Below the pieces are notes generated by a model that was given only the letters and a program-made list of their open reading frames with translations, ran no database searches and was not told the DNA's origin. Below, one piece after another: positions 3,741 to 26,558 of a stretch of DNA of 64,000 bases. Within the stretch, counting starts at the first letter, position 1. Each line of letters begins with the position of its first letter. The stretch covers positions 59,670 through 123,669 of the IMG/VR virus record IMGVR_UViG_3300031992_000033. One strand, 5' to 3'. Source of the stretch: a virus. Taxonomy: Duplodnaviria > Caudoviricetes. A program made the translations under genes and the position numbers.

Positions 3741-4052
3741 TTAATCCTCCTCTCCATAATCAAGATCGAGATTCTTTGCGGTGAATTTGAATTCATTAGG
3801 ATTGAAAGTGACGGGCAGTTCGTATATCCTGTCTTCAATAATTCTGCCGTGATCATCTGTTATTACTGCGGCATATACTACTCCGTCATAATCATATGCC
3901 ACTTCAACATTTTGGTCATAGAATTCTCTGAACTCAATCATCAAGAAGTCCCAGTAATTATCCCTCTCGTCCTCATAATCTACAAGGAACTGTTTCATAG
4001 CGGCTTCGTATTCAGTTTCTGTCATCTTAATAATTCTAATTTCAGGTCTCAT
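3741..4052 (-). CDS. acidic hypothetical protein
   Basis: GGAGG RBS, packed array. Confidence 0.7.
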   Translation of the reverse strand: MRPEIRIIKMTETEYEAAMKQFLVDYEDERDNYWDFLMIEFREFYDQNVEVAYDYDGVVYAAVITDDHGRIIEDRIYELPVTFNPNEFKFTAKNLDLDYGEED

Positions 4053-4066
4053 CGTTTTTGTCCTCC

Positions 4067-4708
4067 TTATCTTTCTATTAGTGTAGGGTTAATCTGGTGA
4101 TACTTAGAACTGGGCTTACGATCTCTGATCTCAATTTCATCAAAAGCCCACGCGCCTACGATTTCCATACAAGTGCCGCTATAGTCTCCGCCTCCAAGTC
4201 CATTGCCGCACGCGGTAAGAATAGGCAGTGGATGTATGCACCAAATTGATTCGTGCTTGACACCTTCGCCGTCAGTCCATGATTCCTTCCACTGGTTTGC
4301 CTTATAGTACTCGTCAAAGTTAATGTACTGTTTCTTAGTTAAGTTGACGATATACTTACCAGAGAGAACGTGATCGGCAGCGGGCGTATGATATTTAATT
4401 ACGCGACCATTTCTTTTCCAAGGATTATACTTTACATATTCATTGGGAAGATCTGCATAGTCTCCTACCCACGCTATCTGAGCCGATCCATTCTTAATTA
4501 TCTCCTCGGTAATCGCATCAACAAACTGGTTGTCAACATAACTATGCTCCATAAGTTTAGCCATAGTATAGTAACTTCCTGTTTGCTGAACTTCTTCGCG
4601 TCTCCATTCCGACAAATTTTCCAGCCCCTTCTTATCGGGCTTAACATATCTGTTATAGTACTTAGCCTTTCCGTTCCTTAAGATTGTTACCATATAATAC
4701 TGTCCCAT
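4067..4708 (-). CDS. conserved phage hypothetical protein
   Basis: MGQYY start, KLMEHSY, WVGDYA, HPLPILTA.GNG.GGGDY and GAWA motifs typical of a widespread phage family. Confidence 0.75.
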   Translation of the reverse strand: MGQYYMVTILRNGKAKYYNRYVKPDKKGLENLSEWRREEVQQTGSYYTMAKLMEHSYVDNQFVDAITEEIIKNGSAQIAWVGDYADLPNEYVKYNPWKRNGRVIKYHTPAADHVLSGKYIVNLTKKQYINFDEYYKANQWKESWTDGEGVKHESIWCIHPLPILTACGNGLGGGDYSGTCMEIVGAWAFDEIEIRDRKPSSKYHQINPTLIER

Positions 4709-4709
4709 A

Positions 4710-5117
4710 TTATTTGTCCTCCTTTATTACTCTATAACCTCTTCTTTCAAGTGCATTTATCAACTCGTTGTCTGATGCTCTTACTTGCCAGATATCCTCT
4801 TTATCATAGTACTCCCAGTCGTTGTTTTCTATAATGTATACACCCTTAAAATCTTCATCGTTGTCTACACATTCTATTTCTCCGTTTGCGATATACTCGT
4901 TGTCATCGAGAGCGGTAAGAAAAATGTCAATGTATTCATAAAAAGCATTATCCAATGTCTTAGAAATAGTGATGCAGTTATCATCTACGGCATCAAGAAT
5001 ACATTCCGCCCACGAACTTAAAGCGGTGTCATTTAATTTCTTATAAATATTGTATGCTGCCTGAAGGGACAAAGGGTTGTTTAAGTGAATATCTCCGCTG
5101 CAATATATTCTTTCCAT
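4710..5117 (-). CDS. hypothetical protein, paralog of 867..1262
   Basis: GGAGG RBS; shared N- and C-terminal motifs with 867..1262. Confidence 0.7.
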   Translation of the reverse strand: MERIYCSGDIHLNNPLSLQAAYNIYKKLNDTALSSWAECILDAVDDNCITISKTLDNAFYEYIDIFLTALDDNEYIANGEIECVDNDEDFKGVYIIENNDWEYYDKEDIWQVRASDNELINALERRGYRVIKEDK

Positions 5118-5131
5118 AATTTATTTCCTCC

Positions 5132-5332
5132 TTATATTCTTTCTGTTTCTCTTAACCAGTCAATGCAGTCCAGCAAACTCTGGAACATATAATGTCCCTG
5201 TGCCCACGTACCAGTGTTGGGGTTATACAAGTAGGCAATACAATAATCACTCTTCCTTTTAAGAATAGTATAATCGCCTATTGTGTCGATCACCTTATAA
5301 CCCTGTTCTGAATATTCGTTGTAATCGCCCAT
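5132..5332 (-). CDS. hypothetical protein
   Basis: GGAGG RBS; W.QGHY motif. Confidence 0.7.
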   Translation of the reverse strand: MGDYNEYSEQGYKVIDTIGDYTILKRKSDYCIAYLYNPNTGTWAQGHYMFQSLLDCIDWLRETERI

Positions 5333-5345
5333 GTTTATTACCTCC

Positions 5346-5942
5346 TTATTTGTAATAATTAAGGTTACAATAGTTTTGTCCGTCAGGTGTTACTATACTA
5401 TAGTATATGTATCCGTTTGTCAAACGTTCAACTGTGTTTTCGTGGTAGATATATGTTCCGTCATACCACTGCAATCTTCCGTATAATAATGCTCTATGCA
5501 GAATAATTTCGTCACCATCTTTATGGCGAGACAAATTCTTTGCCACTACTTGTATGTGTACGTTGGGAGTAGACTTAATCTTTTTCCAAGCACTCATTCT
5601 ATTCTGGCGTTCGCGGCACCGCACGCGCCACTCTATTGCCTCTTCGTTCTCAGTAGGGCTAAGTAGTTTTAAGATCGACGTAGGGCAATCAAAAAAGTAT
5701 GGACATTCAGTTTCATCCATTTCCTTATACAGGAACTCATTGCCGCGCACTTCGGTTAATATTACCAGTCCAAACACATGCCCTCTCGGATGTTCAATGG
5801 CGGCATAATAAGTGCTGTTGTGCATAGAAGACTTGACTACGTGATAGCCGCTCCACGATGTTTCTATTTCGTGGTCAACTAAATCGCGTCTTGCCTTGGG
5901 CGAATCATTTGACAGCGTGTTTCTGATACCAGTCCAGCCCAT
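5346..5942 (-). CDS. DUF6927-like protein
   Basis: MGW start, YYAA, YKEMDE..CP...DCP.SIL.LLSP.....A.EWR.RC pattern. Confidence 0.6.
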   Translation of the reverse strand: MGWTGIRNTLSNDSPKARRDLVDHEIETSWSGYHVVKSSMHNSTYYAAIEHPRGHVFGLVILTEVRGNEFLYKEMDETECPYFFDCPTSILKLLSPTENEEAIEWRVRCRERQNRMSAWKKIKSTPNVHIQVVAKNLSRHKDGDEIILHRALLYGRLQWYDGTYIYHENTVERLTNGYIYYSIVTPDGQNYCNLNYYK

Positions 5943-5963
5943 AACTTACCTCCTTAATAAATC

Positions 5964-5986
5964 AGGGACTGCATTATACAGCCCCT
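5964..5986 (-). terminator. stem-loop / intrinsic terminator
   Basis: Minus strand AGGGGCTG-TATAATG-CAGTCCCT hairpin between genes. Confidence 0.55.
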
Positions 5987-5997
5987 TAAGTTTGCGA

Positions 5998-6657
5998 TTA
6001 TCTTAATACTTCAGCAACGTTACCGCGCTGGGTATAGCAGAAACGACAGGCGTTACATGAACCTCTACTGCAACGGCACTTCCACTCATTCGGAGACGGA
6101 GAGTATCCCTTCTCGTAGACAGTAAAGATCACATCCACAAACGGATAAGTCTTCTTTACGCTGTCGCTAAGAGGGGAATTAATTAGCGGCGAACTTAATA
6201 CTATGTTCATGTTGTCAGGCTTGCCGCCTTCTTCCTTGATCGCCTTCTTATAAATCTCGGGGCGCTTAGTGAAGGCAGAGAAGTTAACCGTAGGATTTGC
6301 CTTAGCAATTCTAATGAAGTTGCGGGCGTGAGTTACGTTAATCACATCACCGTGAGACTCAAACCTGAATACCTCTCGTTTGCTTAAGTTAGGAACAATC
6401 TTAAGCAGCGATTCACTCAGAGCCTTGCCATTACGTTCCAGTGCTACACGCTGCTGGGGATATACACCAGACATAACTTGCTTGTAAGCATAGCAGTGAG
6501 AGCAAACAGTGTTGGTGTTCCTCATCAGGTTCATGCACGACGGGTTCATGCCAGCAAAACTGCTAATGGAACGGACGTTCTCCATTTTACCAGTCAGGTG
6601 GCTGATGTGAATTCCAGTCTCTTTTTCAAACTGGGCTACTGATACTACGTTAGGCAT
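5998..6657 (-). CDS. GP88-like protein (radical-SAM-related Fe-S)
   Basis: C...CxxCYA, FRFESHGD, FTKR and C-terminal C..CxxCxxC motifs. Confidence 0.65.
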   Translation of the reverse strand: MPNVVSVAQFEKETGIHISHLTGKMENVRSISSFAGMNPSCMNLMRNTNTVCSHCYAYKQVMSGVYPQQRVALERNGKALSESLLKIVPNLSKREVFRFESHGDVINVTHARNFIRIAKANPTVNFSAFTKRPEIYKKAIKEEGGKPDNMNIVLSSPLINSPLSDSVKKTYPFVDVIFTVYEKGYSPSPNEWKCRCSRGSCNACRFCYTQRGNVAEVLR

Positions 6658-6681
6658 AATATTATCCTCCTTGTTGGTATT

Positions 6682-6710
6682 AGTTTACTACAAAATAAAA
6701 GTACTGTCAA
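6682..6710 (-). promoter_or_regulatory. sigmaA-type promoter
   Basis: Minus strand TTGACA-17 nt-TAAACT upstream of AAGGAGG RBS. Confidence 0.65.
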
Positions 6711-6928
6711 TTACGGCGGCGGTCTTATTCTCATAGACTCTCCTTTCTATTTATCCTTCATGCCTTCGTCATATATGGAATTAAGTTCGTCGTGAAGTTC
6801 AGGCGGTATAGTATCCTTTATATGATGCTTTTCGTAGAACTTTCCGATCTTAATTCCCAACTTCATACCCAACCTAAATCCCTTGCGGTATGCCGACAGC
6901 ACACTTTCATTAATAAGATCTCTCATAA

Positions 6929-7321
6929 TTAATCCTCTCCTCTATACTGCAATACAATACACCTATGTTTAGTCATAGGGCGGACAACAATAAACTCGTC
7001 ACCAATCTGTCTTTCGAGTTCGGCAATTACCTTGGTGAGTTGTTCGTCGGTAAGATTCCATTCGATGCAATCCTCACCAATATAGTCGTCGCGCTTTACG
7101 CAACCTCTGCCATTGTCCGCGTTCTTGAAGAGGATATAAGAGATATCATCATAGTCCGTATCTTCAAGTACTTCATTGTTGCGCCAGTATCTACTGGGCA
7201 GATCCTTCGGACCATAGCAGCAACTACACATGCCCCGCTTGTATGTATAGTGAGCAAAGTCTATGTCGCATACTTCTCTTAAGTGCTTCAGGTTTAAGTC
7301 CTTGTATTTGTATTTTGCCAT
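6929..7321 (-). CDS. hypothetical protein
   Basis: GGAGG RBS; CSCCYGP motif. Confidence 0.7.
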   Translation of the reverse strand: MAKYKYKDLNLKHLREVCDIDFAHYTYKRGMCSCCYGPKDLPSRYWRNNEVLEDTDYDDISYILFKNADNGRGCVKRDDYIGEDCIEWNLTDEQLTKVIAELERQIGDEFIVVRPMTKHRCIVLQYRGED

Positions 7322-21233: not shown

Positions 21234-21427
21234 GAAAAATACTGGATACATTTTTTATGATAGCCTGTGCAATAACAATAATATGTATGTTTCTTACTAT
21301 ATTTGATCCTTACGGAGAATGGTTGATTCATAAATTGTTATCACTTATAGGTATAAGTATATTAGTTCCAATTACAGCATTAAATCTTATTTACTGGAAG
21401 GGAATGCCAGATGAGAACAATAACTAA
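21230..21427 (+). CDS. small two-TM membrane protein
   Basis: Two hydrophobic segments; ATGA coupling to the hydrolase gene. Confidence 0.6.
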   Translation: MRKILDTFFMIACAITIICMFLTIFDPYGEWLIHKLLSLIGISILVPITALNLIYWKGMPDENNN

Positions 21428-22373
21428 AACACATACGGGAATGATCGTTTCTGATGATGAATTAAAGTTGGAATATCTTTATGTCGGAGATTACGGCAAG
21501 GAAAATAATATAAAGGCAGACTTTCTCGGTTATACAAAAAGAATCGAAAAGGTTGAGCATAAGGATGTAGATATAACGGATAAACTTGTTGTAACTGTAT
21601 CTTCACAAAAAGGATGTCCAATGGCTTGTGATTTTTGTGATTGCCCTAAGTATGGTTTTCACGGAAATTGTTCAGTCGTTGAACTTATCTCGGAGATTAC
21701 AACTGGAATAGCATTGTCTGGAATTAAACATGGGAAGAGACTCAATGTTCACTTTGCTCGTATGGGAGAACCTACATTTAACCGTGATGTAATCAAGGCT
21801 GCTGTGACCATAGCGACCATGATAGATTCTGGTAACACTGTAAGTTTCGATGAATATCATCCAGTAGTATCTACTATGATGCCCAAAGGTAATAATAATC
21901 TTGAGGACTTTTTACAGGAATGGGTTAAGTGTGGTAAAATATACGGGGGAGAGGACGGCTTTGGACTTCAGTTCTCTATCAATACCCTCAATGAAGCAGA
22001 CAGAAATCAAATGTTTCGAAACAGATCTCTTTCCTTGAGTGAGATAAGCAATATTATCAAGAAACTTCCCGCTCCCGCAAAAAGAAAGTATACGCTTAAT
22101 TTTGCGGTAACAAGTAAAAGCGACTTAAATCCTGTCCTTATGGATCAGTTATTTGATAAAGAAAAGTGTATTGTTAAGATTACACCTATTCATGAAACTC
22201 ATGAAGCCTTGAATCAGGGATATGAAATTGTCAAAGACTTTGATGTTTACGAAAAGTTCGAAAGACCTCTTGTGGAGGCTGGATGGGAAGTTATCGTATT
22301 TGTACCATCCGAAGAGGAAGATAAGGATAGAATTACTTGCGGGAATTCACTGATAGCAAAAGCCTCTAAGTAA
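21411..22373 (+). CDS. RlmN/Cfr-like radical SAM methyltransferase
   Basis: VSSQKGCPMACDFC (CxxxCxxC), RMGEP, LQFSIN and C-terminal TCGN motifs. Confidence 0.8.
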   Translation: MRTITKTHTGMIVSDDELKLEYLYVGDYGKENNIKADFLGYTKRIEKVEHKDVDITDKLVVTVSSQKGCPMACDFCDCPKYGFHGNCSVVELISEITTGIALSGIKHGKRLNVHFARMGEPTFNRDVIKAAVTIATMIDSGNTVSFDEYHPVVSTMMPKGNNNLEDFLQEWVKCGKIYGGEDGFGLQFSINTLNEADRNQMFRNRSLSLSEISNIIKKLPAPAKRKYTLNFAVTSKSDLNPVLMDQLFDKEKCIVKITPIHETHEALNQGYEIVKDFDVYEKFERPLVEAGWEVIVFVPSEEEDKDRITCGNSLIAKASK

Positions 22374-23684: not shown

Positions 23685-26558
23685 GTGATAACGCTGGGTA
23701 ATTATGGCTACAAGATCAACAATTACGAAGCGGGTTCAATTTATGAGGTTGACTGCGGCGTAAGAAAGAAATATGATACCAAACCAGCGATGCTAACCAA
23801 TTCGTTATTCTTAGACTTCTTAAAGGCAAATGGTCTGACCACGAAGAACGATAAGTTTACGCGGGATATCATTTGCCTAAACTTTAATTACGGGAGTCGC
23901 ACATACGATAACGAAATGGCGCGAATAGATGTAGCGCTGGCGGAAAGCCCCGACAATGAATACCTTAAAGCACTTAAGGCAGAGTGCGAGGCTAACAAGG
24001 ACAAGTTTGATTGTAAGAGCGCGGATGAAATCCGCCTCAAGTATTACCAAGATGGTGTTACGATCCATTATAAGAACGGAGATGTAAAATATAAATACTT
24101 GTACCGCACGGCTGGTAAAGCCAAGGTGGGGTCATGTATGTTTATCAAGCAAAGCCTGTATAAAAAGGCTCATAACTTTCTTTATATGGGACTTAGTCTT
24201 CCAAAACACGATGCCCCCATAACGGAGTTTGGTGCGTATACATCTCTTGTAACATCAACAATTATAGACAAGGTCGAGATAAATCCAGAAGACATAGTAA
24301 TATTAAAAGACGTAAGGTCGGAATTCAAAACCAATGTGGTGAGCGTCGAGGTAGAGAATGGTAAGTGCAAGGCGGTGTACCGCAGAGACTACACGTTGGG
24401 TTGCGATATGTTCGACGGACAGGCGCTGATCGACTTGTCAATATGTCCCGAATGGACAAATGGCTATGTGCTGTTGCGACATCATTTCACAAAAGCGGCG
24501 GCATTTGCCACAGATATACAAGGCTTTCTCAAAGACCATTTTGGTCAGGAATATGATACGGCTTATCTGACGGATATGTGGGGTAATAAACATTTAGCCA
24601 AGAACGTGAAGGTAATTACCACCAATAATGCCTGTAAGTGGATTAAGTACGACGTACCCTATGAGACATGGTGTGACAAGGTGCGGGAGAACGGATCAAT
24701 GTTCGGCATTGTAAAGACGGCACACCCAAGCAAGTATGGAGACTACCAGAGAATGTCATACCAAATGGTGAACGCCCTAAGCAATGAAACCATAGATGAG
24801 GTTGCGTCGCCAACAAAGGATTATGTAAAGGCACTCAAGACCGATTTAAATACATATCTGGAATTTCTGAGAAGAAACGCCAACTTCTCAAACGACTATG
24901 AGGCACTGTTGGCAATATGGACTCAGGATCATACGTTTGAACAAAGTGAGTACTTTCGTGAGAGAAAGCAAAAGATCATATACGACTACACTACAAGCGT
25001 AAAGACTGGCAAGTTGTTACAGAACGCGGACAATCTTGTAATATGCGGAAGTCCATACGCAATGCTATTACATTCAGTCGGTATAGACGTAAGCAAAGAT
25101 CCTACGTTTGAAGTAGAGGATGATGCAATACAATGTTACTCGGAAAGATTTGAGGACGGGGAATACTTAGCAGAGTTTCGAAATCCGTTTAACTCTCAAA
25201 ACAATTTGGGCTATTTGCATAATCATTTGCATCCGCTGATTAAAAAGTATTTTAGATTAGGCAAGTTGTGTATAGCGGTTAATCTACAAGGAACAAGTTT
25301 CTGTGACAGAAACAATGGCTTAACAAACTGGGCTAGCGTACAGAAATGTGCGTGATAAACACTTGGTGAAAATTGGAAGGCTAAGTATATGATTAATTTC
25401 CAAGTCAATTTTGGAAAGGACACTTATTGTTAAAAGAAAATCTTGGAAAAATATTTAATCATATATACGCTAATCAATTACGAAGCCTGTATTGCCAATA
25501 ATAACTACAGGAACGTTTAACGACTAGGTGGTGAGTAGGCAGCAATAATCCACCCACGAGCGCCGAGCACCTGAACAGATAATGCTGAAGGTGATGAGAT
25601 AGTCTGACCTTATAGGAAACTATAAGAAATATCAGATAAAGAACTGATATGATAACATAATGCAGATCAAGACAGCGACTCAATATACACGACTAACGCG
25701 CCAGCGATAGTCGAACATGCGAAGTATTGTTATAAGGTTTATCCAACGATAGTAAATAATATACCGCAGAGTAAAAAGAAATATGATTCAGACATGGCAT
25801 CCTTTGCGGCAATGGATAATGCACTAAGCGCTAGCCAGAGAAATATTGGTGAATCAAGTAATCTGGCTCAGGTGTGCTTAACATATACGTACAATTTTAA
25901 AGATCAGAAGTTTAAAGACTATGCCTGTATTTTGGCAGTGCTTGCTCAAGCAGCAATAGATAGTAGCAAACGTACGTTCTCTATAGACATAACAAATGAA
26001 ATAAAGCGCATACGCGAAGATATGGGGATTAAGGACAATAAGTATCCACCATTTTGGCAACAGATCCGTAAGGGCTTTCCTGTAAACAGAGTTAATTTTA
26101 AACTTGACTCCCCCATGTGTAGACTTTACAAAATGGATTTTGAATCCTACAAACCAAAAACCGAGACATTGCCAACGTCAACATTCTTTGAGAAGTATCC
26201 GTTGGATATGACCAAGAAGATGTCGCGCAATGTAGAAGACTTAATACAGAAGTATCAACTGGAATTGCTAGATAGCAGAATAGAAAAAGAAGATAGCGAG
26301 AATAATTCGGAGACATTTTTACTTTTAAGAGAAGACTTCGATCAACTCGTAAATGATATAAGGCGCATAGCCCTCCCCAGTAAATATGTTGGATTGTTTA
26401 GTTGGTTAATTGACAGGGCTTTTAGAATGACGCCACAACTTGAACAGCAAACCGCTGGGTTAAAAAGCAAACTAAATAAGAATAGAGCAATCTTATTAAG
26501 GGTTTTATATGAGGTGAACCCCGAAGCATTACTCAAATGCTTCTCCAAAAATCTGTAA
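23685..26558 (+). CDS. yonO: YonO-like single-subunit DNA-dependent RNA polymerase (RdRP-related); exons 23685-25320 and 25663-26558, 843 aa when spliced
   Basis: RTAGKAKVG, FDGQ, LRHHF.K and FRNP motifs; splicing restores NNGSDQDSD catalytic motif in frame; lies upstream of the morphogenesis genes as in SPbeta. Confidence 0.85.
25321..25662 (+). ncRNA. group I intron (no homing endonuclease)
   Basis: 5' exon ends in U with P1 UGGCU/GGCUA; P3 CTTGGTG/CGCCGAG; P7 GACTA/TAGTC; P9 CTTATAG-GAAA-CTATAAG; terminal G at 25662. Confidence 0.9.

Follow-up and report, generated by a model that had tools for sequence, protein, structure and literature searches.

A probable group I intron, stripped of its endonuclease gene, ahead of the catalytic aspartates of a predicted YonO-type phage RNA polymerase

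Introduction

The window analysed here is the right-hand 64 kb of the 123.7-kb IMG/VR virus record IMGVR_UViG_3300031992_000033, which is rated 98% complete. In it, two open reading frames (ORFs) of 556 and 254 amino acids (aa) follow one another on the plus strand and in the same frame, at 23685..25355 and 25794..26558. The question raised by this locus is whether the two ORFs are parts of a single gene and, if so, what interrupts it. We conclude, with a probability of about 0.9, that the segment 25321-25662 is a splicing-competent group I intron of subgroup IA, a selfish homing element without an endonuclease, in a gene for a YonO-type RNA polymerase. A preliminary description of the locus had already read the two ORFs as one gene with these intron boundaries, and it had added a regulatory role for the intron; the former is confirmed and the latter judged improbable below.

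Splice junction and intron-less alleles

Joining position 25320 to 25663 gives a frame of 2532 nucleotides (nt), that is 843 codons and a stop, with the junction DRNNG-S-DQDSD. A scan of IMG/VR with exon 1 yielded 11 related loci (numbered with L here), and 8 of the 11 carry an uninterrupted frame of 843-897 residues, one of them clipped by the end of its contig. The uninterrupted proteins share 84-90% identity with that of the window in L005, L007, L008, L009, L010 and L013, and 53-54% in L011 and L012. The predicted spliced sequence, DRNNGSDQDSDSIYTTNAPA, is read exactly by L005, L008, L009 and L010. At the DNA level, GGC T runs directly into CA GAT in L007, L008, L010 and L013, where the window has GGC T, the intron and then CA GAT. 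The agreement of protein and DNA fixes both splice sites to the base. Thus, the 843-aa frame, the exact boundaries and the identity of the spliced junction with intron-less alleles of related phages are all as the preliminary description had them.

Architecture of the intron

The Rfam model RF00028 (group I intron) matches 25330-25626 on the plus strand over its full length (1-253), with 58.5 bits against a gathering score of 50 and an E value of 2.9e-12. No second match in the window reaches the gathering score, and a search of the entire 123.7-kb record likewise gave this one RF00028 match (E <= 0.001). Every helix named beforehand was recovered in place, namely P1, P2, P3, P4 (25371-25376/25474-25479), P6, P7, P7.1, P8 and P9, together with the terminal G25662 (Table 1). 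The intron sequence alone folds with a z score of -4.3 relative to shuffles, and the fold contains P1, P2, P3, P4-P5, P6, P7.1, P8, P9 and P9.1. The 3-base-pair (bp) P10 agrees with the same 3' splice site (25662/25663) that the intron-less alleles define. By analogy, P7 is the putative guanosine-binding helix. The P7.1 hairpin, in which 4 of 5 pairs covary, indicates subgroup IA, as had been suggested; a single hairpin is seen, so the assignment is made to the IA level. The in-frame stop behind exon 1 is conserved in position across the family and probably keeps ribosomes out of the ribozyme core. An early in-frame stop that shields the core is a familiar feature of phage introns.

To assess selection on these helices, we aligned nine introns of YonO-type genes (those of the window, L004, L006, L014, L016, L133 and L134, and both of L001) with E-INS-i and counted covariation in Python, using the helices of the window. 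Compensatory double changes occur in 40 of the 67 pairs, and standard pairs fill 532 of 586 cells (91%). Slid controls, in which the 3' partner was moved by 1-3 columns, give 10-15 compensatory pairs and 33-43% canonical cells. The counts lean towards structure, since the sequences are related and the structure was partly derived from them, but the margin over the slid controls is still large. For P10, 21 of 27 cells are canonical. P7 (GACUA/UAGUC) and the U.G pair at the splice site are invariant in the nine introns, which makes P7 neutral evidence with respect to covariation. The guide also tracks the exon: an exon with GGG-U in place of GGC-U goes with a guide in which C replaces G at the partner position, turning C-G into G-C (25319/25332). 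These patterns indicate a ribozyme under selection.

Table 1. Positions in the window of the exons, the predicted intron with its helices, and related sites
Feature	Position	Strand	Details
Exon 1, YonO-type RNA polymerase gene (predicted)	23685..25320	+	GTG start after GAAGGGAAG ribosome-binding site; 545 codons and base 1 of codon Ser546
Group I intron, 342 nt, IA type (predicted), without endonuclease gene	25321..25662	+	RF00028; intron-less alleles; covariation
P1	25316..25335	+	5' exon UGGCU (25316-25320) with internal guide GGCUA (25331-25335); 5' splice site at U25320.G25331
P10 guide CUG	25328..25330	+	Pairs with the first exon 2 bases CAG (25663-25665), 3 bp
P2 hairpin, GAAA loop	25336..25353	+	In-frame stop TGA 25353-25355 right after P2, ahead of the catalytic core; read-through tail LT.W.SVQKCA, shared with related protein clusters
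P3, 5' strand	25362..25368	+	Partner 25561-25567; compensatory changes in 6/7 pairs
HNH gene remnant in P5 extension	25413..25458	+	Ribosome-binding site GGAAAGGA 25413-25420; deletion joint near 25425-25428; last 11 codons (IVKRKSWKNI, stop) 25426-25458; from alignment to L006
P7, 5' strand GACUA	25522..25526	+	Partner UAGUC 25600-25604; invariant in 9/9 introns
P7.1 hairpin	25527..25554	+	Between P7 and the 3' strand of P3, IA-type extra element; compensatory in 4/5 pairs
P8 hairpin	25568..25593	+	Covariation
P9, GAAA loop	25610..25626	+	
P9.1, extra hairpin	25629..25650	+	
Terminal (omega) G	25662	+	Last intron base
Exon 2	25663..26558	+	Last two bases of Ser546, Asp triad, C-terminal 297 residues, stop
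Catalytic Asp triad codons DQDSD	25665..25679	+	GAT 25665, GAC 25671, GAC 25677
Empty second intron site, between AVLA and QAAID	25946..25947	+	In MT837385.1 and 7 protein clusters a related intron sits here

Host gene

The polymerase was identified by comparison with YonO of the Bacillus phage SPbeta, a single-chain, two-barrel DNA-dependent RNA polymerase that has an essential Asp triad and is inactivated when these aspartates are mutated (Forrest et al. 2017, PMC5467207). In tblastn, exon 1 finds SPbeta yonO (E 8e-8, ~25% identity), and it also matches PHROG 8308 (E 3.5e-71). Neither exon has a match in Pfam, in which no family covers the YonO-type polymerase, and sequence and profile searches of the PDB gave no match for the polymerase. 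The hhalign alignment of SPbeta YonO with a profile of 18 full-length homologues covers 391 columns (E 2.2e-6, probability 89%). This alignment spans the junction and places the Asp triad of the family (DQDSD in the window, DFDSD in the lead sequence of the profile) on DNDGD of YonO; the aspartates D544, D546 and D548 are invariant across the 18 homologues. For the structure, we modelled an intron-less relative (P0005) that is 86% identical to the window protein. The AlphaFold (AF2) model has a predicted local distance difference test score (pLDDT) of 84, and Foldseek matches it to RDR2 (5.7e-11) and QDE-1 (3e-10) at a template-modelling (TM) score of about 0.5, as well as to gp64 of phage P32, gp62 of P74 and gp66 of crAss phi14:2. 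Together, the profile and the model indicate that the window gene encodes a YonO-type single-chain, two-barrel (double-psi beta-barrel) RNA polymerase. The preliminary description had put the insertion just before the Asp triad of such an enzyme; it lies one codon ahead of the triad, which the alignment to YonO crosses.

Both exons, compared with intron-less alleles, have a low proportion of nonsynonymous differences (pN 0.05-0.12) against a saturated synonymous proportion (pS 0.66-0.83), and exon 2 holds 297 sense codons with no stop and no frameshift.

Loss of the HNH endonuclease gene

In the sister phage L006, the site is occupied by the same intron, there 829 nt long and with a 172-aa ORF. 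The product of this ORF matches Pfam HNH_3 (E 6e-8), the endonuclease I-HmuI (1u3e, E 8e-7) and I-BasI of phage Eyuki (43% identity over 70 aa). Outside the ORF, the introns of the window and L006 are 89% identical (305/342), while the flanking exons are 78% identical, and many of the differences between the introns are compensatory pairs in P3, P8, P9 and P9.1. About 486 nt are cleanly gone from the window copy. The absence of an endonuclease had been noted before, and there is indeed no endonuclease ORF within the window intron; however, the copy still holds the ribosome-binding site of the ORF and its last 11 codons as a remnant, so it is better described as a deletion derivative. By this alignment, the window intron is the endonuclease-deleted form of an L006-type HNH intron and, with the ~486 nt of the endonuclease gene lost, it would no longer be able to home by itself. 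HNH_3 ORFs are found at the site of the window intron in L006, L016 and L133.

A co-conversion tract was considered and rejected: the last 60 nt of exon 1 are 92% identical to L006, but intron-less alleles are about as similar there. Elsewhere in the genome, outside the window on the minus strand (G000:C1:23124-23339), a distant HNH match to the L006 endonuclease (29% identity, E 1e-5) falls in a free-standing ORF of 217 aa; this phage genome has no other relative of the L006 enzyme. In L016, from the metagenome-assembled genome GCA_045627125.1, a gene for an IS605-type OrfB, or Cas12f-like TnpB, at 5868-6972 follows exon 2 of the intron-split polymerase gene at a distance of ~1 kb, with two small genes between.

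Proposed mechanism and alternative explanations

The course would be that of group I introns in general: the pre-mRNA would fold such that the exon sequence UGGCU pairs with the guide GGCUA in P1, after which free guanosine would attack behind U25320. P10 would then dock the 3' exon, the exons would be joined, and the intron ending in G25662 would be released. The joined message would encode the 843-aa polymerase, and ribosomes on unspliced RNA would halt at the stop ahead of the ribozyme core. An intron copy of this kind would persist since it splices, and it would break up the sequence recognized by such endonucleases; the occupied site would no longer be a target, and the copy may shield the gene from the endonucleases of relatives. 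The coexistence of empty, endonuclease-bearing and endonuclease-less alleles, with an intron that is more conserved than the exons, points to homing followed by decay of the endonuclease. Homing is probable on these grounds.

Four points weigh against the reading of a splicing-competent selfish intron. First, the evidence for splicing comes from DNA sequence and not from RNA. Second, P9 of the window contains two non-canonical cells, A.A at 25612/25624 and U.U at 25613/25623, although all other pairs form. Third, no role is known for the long extension of P5 that holds the remnant of the ORF. Finally, the purifying selection on exon 2 mostly predates the arrival of the intron and, taken alone, is no proof of present-day expression.

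The preliminary description had gone further and proposed guanosine-dependent self-splicing as a possible regulatory checkpoint. In such a checkpoint, the phage would time or gate its late-gene polymerase by the efficiency of splicing, set by the supply of guanosine nucleotides or by translation. Unspliced RNA would indeed give no active enzyme, since the stop at 25353-25355 precedes the Asp triad and leaves a truncated protein, as that description had said. Furthermore, the terminase and the structural module come just downstream of the gene, and YonO drives the late genes of SPbeta (PMC5467207). We nevertheless regard a checkpoint as improbable. Sister phages with 84-90% identical polymerases do without the intron, in other relatives it comes with a homing endonuclease, or related introns sit elsewhere, either 9 nt downstream or at the third site, and the conservation of the intron above that of the exons fits a mobile element; the patchy presence in sister phages shows that the intron is not a conserved control device, and no regulation-specific element was found. 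A second alternative is that the deletion of the endonuclease gene or later mutations crippled the ribozyme, leaving a polymerase pseudogene in a defective phage. The deletion itself and the two mismatched cells of P9 would fit such a dead intron, but all core helices are intact in the window's own sequence, which also keeps P7, the U.G pair and the terminal G, and the differences from the L006 twin are largely compensatory; with an open exon 2 and a virus record that is close to complete, this explanation is very improbable. Lastly, separate translation of the two ORFs into a split polymerase that assembles without RNA splicing, for which the split RNA polymerase subunits of jumbo phages (PMC7824862) and the ATG that begins the ORF at 25794 could be cited, is hardly credible, because that ORF lacks the Asp triad and 44 conserved residues, the last 11 residues of the 556-aa product are translated ribozyme P1-P2, and Rfam scores the RNA in between as a whole group I intron.

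Intron sites in the gene family

We compared the positions of introns in related genes and found three sites in or near the active site that share G(G/A)CU before and CAG after the junction. In L004, a related intron lies 9 nt downstream of the window site, after GAC-U between DQD and SD. The closest public relative, MT837385.1 (L001), comes from human faeces and is an unannotated record with two group I introns in its YonO-type gene. Its intron 1 (4277-5000) occupies the site of the window intron and has an HNH ORF, and intron 2 (5285-5560) lies between VVA and QAAID, at the counterpart of the empty site 25946|25947 of the window, and has no ORF.

For frequencies, we used the best 120 protein clusters (90% identity) found with exon 1, because the 80 best IMG/VR loci are biased towards uninterrupted genes. 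Full-length proteins make up 83 of the 120 clusters; 25/120 end at the site of the window intron, 4/120 at the site 9 nt downstream and 7/120 at the third site. Most of the 25 clusters that end at the first site close with LT.W.SVQ.CA, a tail translated from P1-P2 of the ribozyme. Among the contigs of four such clusters, three have an HNH_3 ORF (one of them also NUMOD4), and others have a faint GIY-YIG ORF or no endonuclease. Of 31 IMG/VR stretches found with a pattern made from part of the intron, 5 are in YonO-type genes whose split falls at the same residue, and all others are in different genes. On this distribution, the active site of the YonO-type gene appears to be an intron hot spot.

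A more speculative account is that one intron lineage colonized three sites, one before the triad, one 9 nt downstream inside the triad and one ~95 codons downstream, with the guide retuned each time. The spread would then have occurred by reverse-splicing transposition and not by endonuclease homing, and endonuclease-less copies may protect against the HNH enzymes of co-infecting relatives, as in PhiPA3 versus PhiKZ (see below). We consider this account doubtful.

Comparison with known introns

The nearest known relatives of the ribozyme are in DNA polymerase genes. The segment 25592-25659, from the end of P8 through the 3' strand of P7 to P9 and P9.1, is ~84% identical by megablast to the I-BasI intron that the Bastille-like phage Eyuki carries in its DNA polymerase gene. 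SPO1, SP82 and Bastille, all phages of Bacillus, have group I introns in their DNA polymerase genes, from which the HNH nicking endonucleases I-HmuI, I-HmuII and I-BasI are described (Landthaler and Shub, cited by PMC11620839). These introns belong to the same ribozyme family, the endonuclease of the L006 twin matches I-HmuI and I-BasI, and in both cases the insertion interrupts an essential polymerase gene within a conserved catalytic region. However, their host gene is a DNA polymerase and the phages are Herelleviridae, whereas the window has a YonO-type RNA polymerase gene, a lost endonuclease and an origin among uncultured ~120-130-kb metagenome phages.

A second parallel is Pseudomonas phage PhiPA3, in which a putative group I intron with the HNH endonuclease gp210 lies in the gene of the virion RNA polymerase beta subunit, and gp210 cuts the intron-less polymerase allele of the related PhiKZ (Birkholz et al. 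2024, PMC11620839). As in the window, the intron adjoins conserved catalytic-region aspartates of a phage RNA polymerase gene. The PhiPA3 enzyme is multisubunit and belongs to a nucleus-forming jumbo phage, whereas that of the window is a single chain, the insertion falls in its beta-prime-like Asp-triad barrel, and the intron has no endonuclease.

Loss of the endonuclease also has a precedent. The T4 nrdB intron (I-TevIII) is a phage IA intron in which a deletion has inactivated the gene for the homing endonuclease but splicing is retained, and a relative keeps the full gene. In this case, the host gene, the endonuclease lineage and the phage group all differ from those of the window.

Lastly, SPbeta resembles the window in having the polymerase gene ahead of the late module in a ~125-kb phage, but identity to its YonO is about 22-25% and its own yonO is uninterrupted. 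In the SPbeta-like Bacillus phages Goe14 (L131) and Goe11 (L132), at 3962-5266 of the locus, an insertion encoding a GIY-YIG/NUMOD3/HTH protein interrupts yonO at a different place, behind residue 626. The insertion is annotated as a hypothetical protein between yonO_1 and yonO_2, with no intron, and that of Goe14 has no Rfam intron match at E <= 0.01; it is likely an intron.

Genomic context

The genes downstream of the polymerase gene include those of a ClpP-like protease and an SbcD-like exonuclease and that of the large terminase; the structural module also lies on this side. In related loci an HU-like gene comes after the polymerase, as yonN does after yonO in SPbeta. A putative role in late-gene transcription is suggested by position, with the terminase and head protease genes following. 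The host is probably a gut or rumen Firmicute, judging from Enterocloster and human-faecal relatives.

Upstream of the polymerase gene, at 21411-22373, a 320-aa ORF has a sub-threshold radical-SAM match (25.9 bits versus 29.5) and belongs to PHROG 24834, of unknown function. Between 18600 and 19500 of the window, Rfam finds no family at E <= 1. ROOL RNA (RF03087) is present a few kilobases downstream of the polymerase gene in L009 (4474-5081, 224 bits) and L014 (5725-5967, 136 bits), and none is found in the window at gathering score.

Significance

Among the papers found, those on YonO and its relatives make no mention of introns in YonO-type genes (PMC5467207, PMC2919709, PMC7824862 and bioRxiv 10.1101/2021.11.22.469490). 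The element is an ordinary selfish phage intron of the SPO1/Bastille kind, common but unannotated in this gene family, and it leaves the understanding of how phage introns work unchanged. Its practical consequence is in annotation. Gene callers give a truncated 556-aa protein and an orphan, and the same artefact affects ~30% of the nearest public protein clusters (36/120), with tails translated from the ribozyme; thus, YonO-type polymerases of gut and rumen phages are systematically misannotated at their active site. For the biology of the family, the single-chain, two-barrel RNA polymerase joins the essential phage genes that are targeted by homing introns. The empty site, the intron with and without endonuclease and the shifted sites form a compact natural series that is well suited to the study of intron gain, endonuclease loss and site shift.

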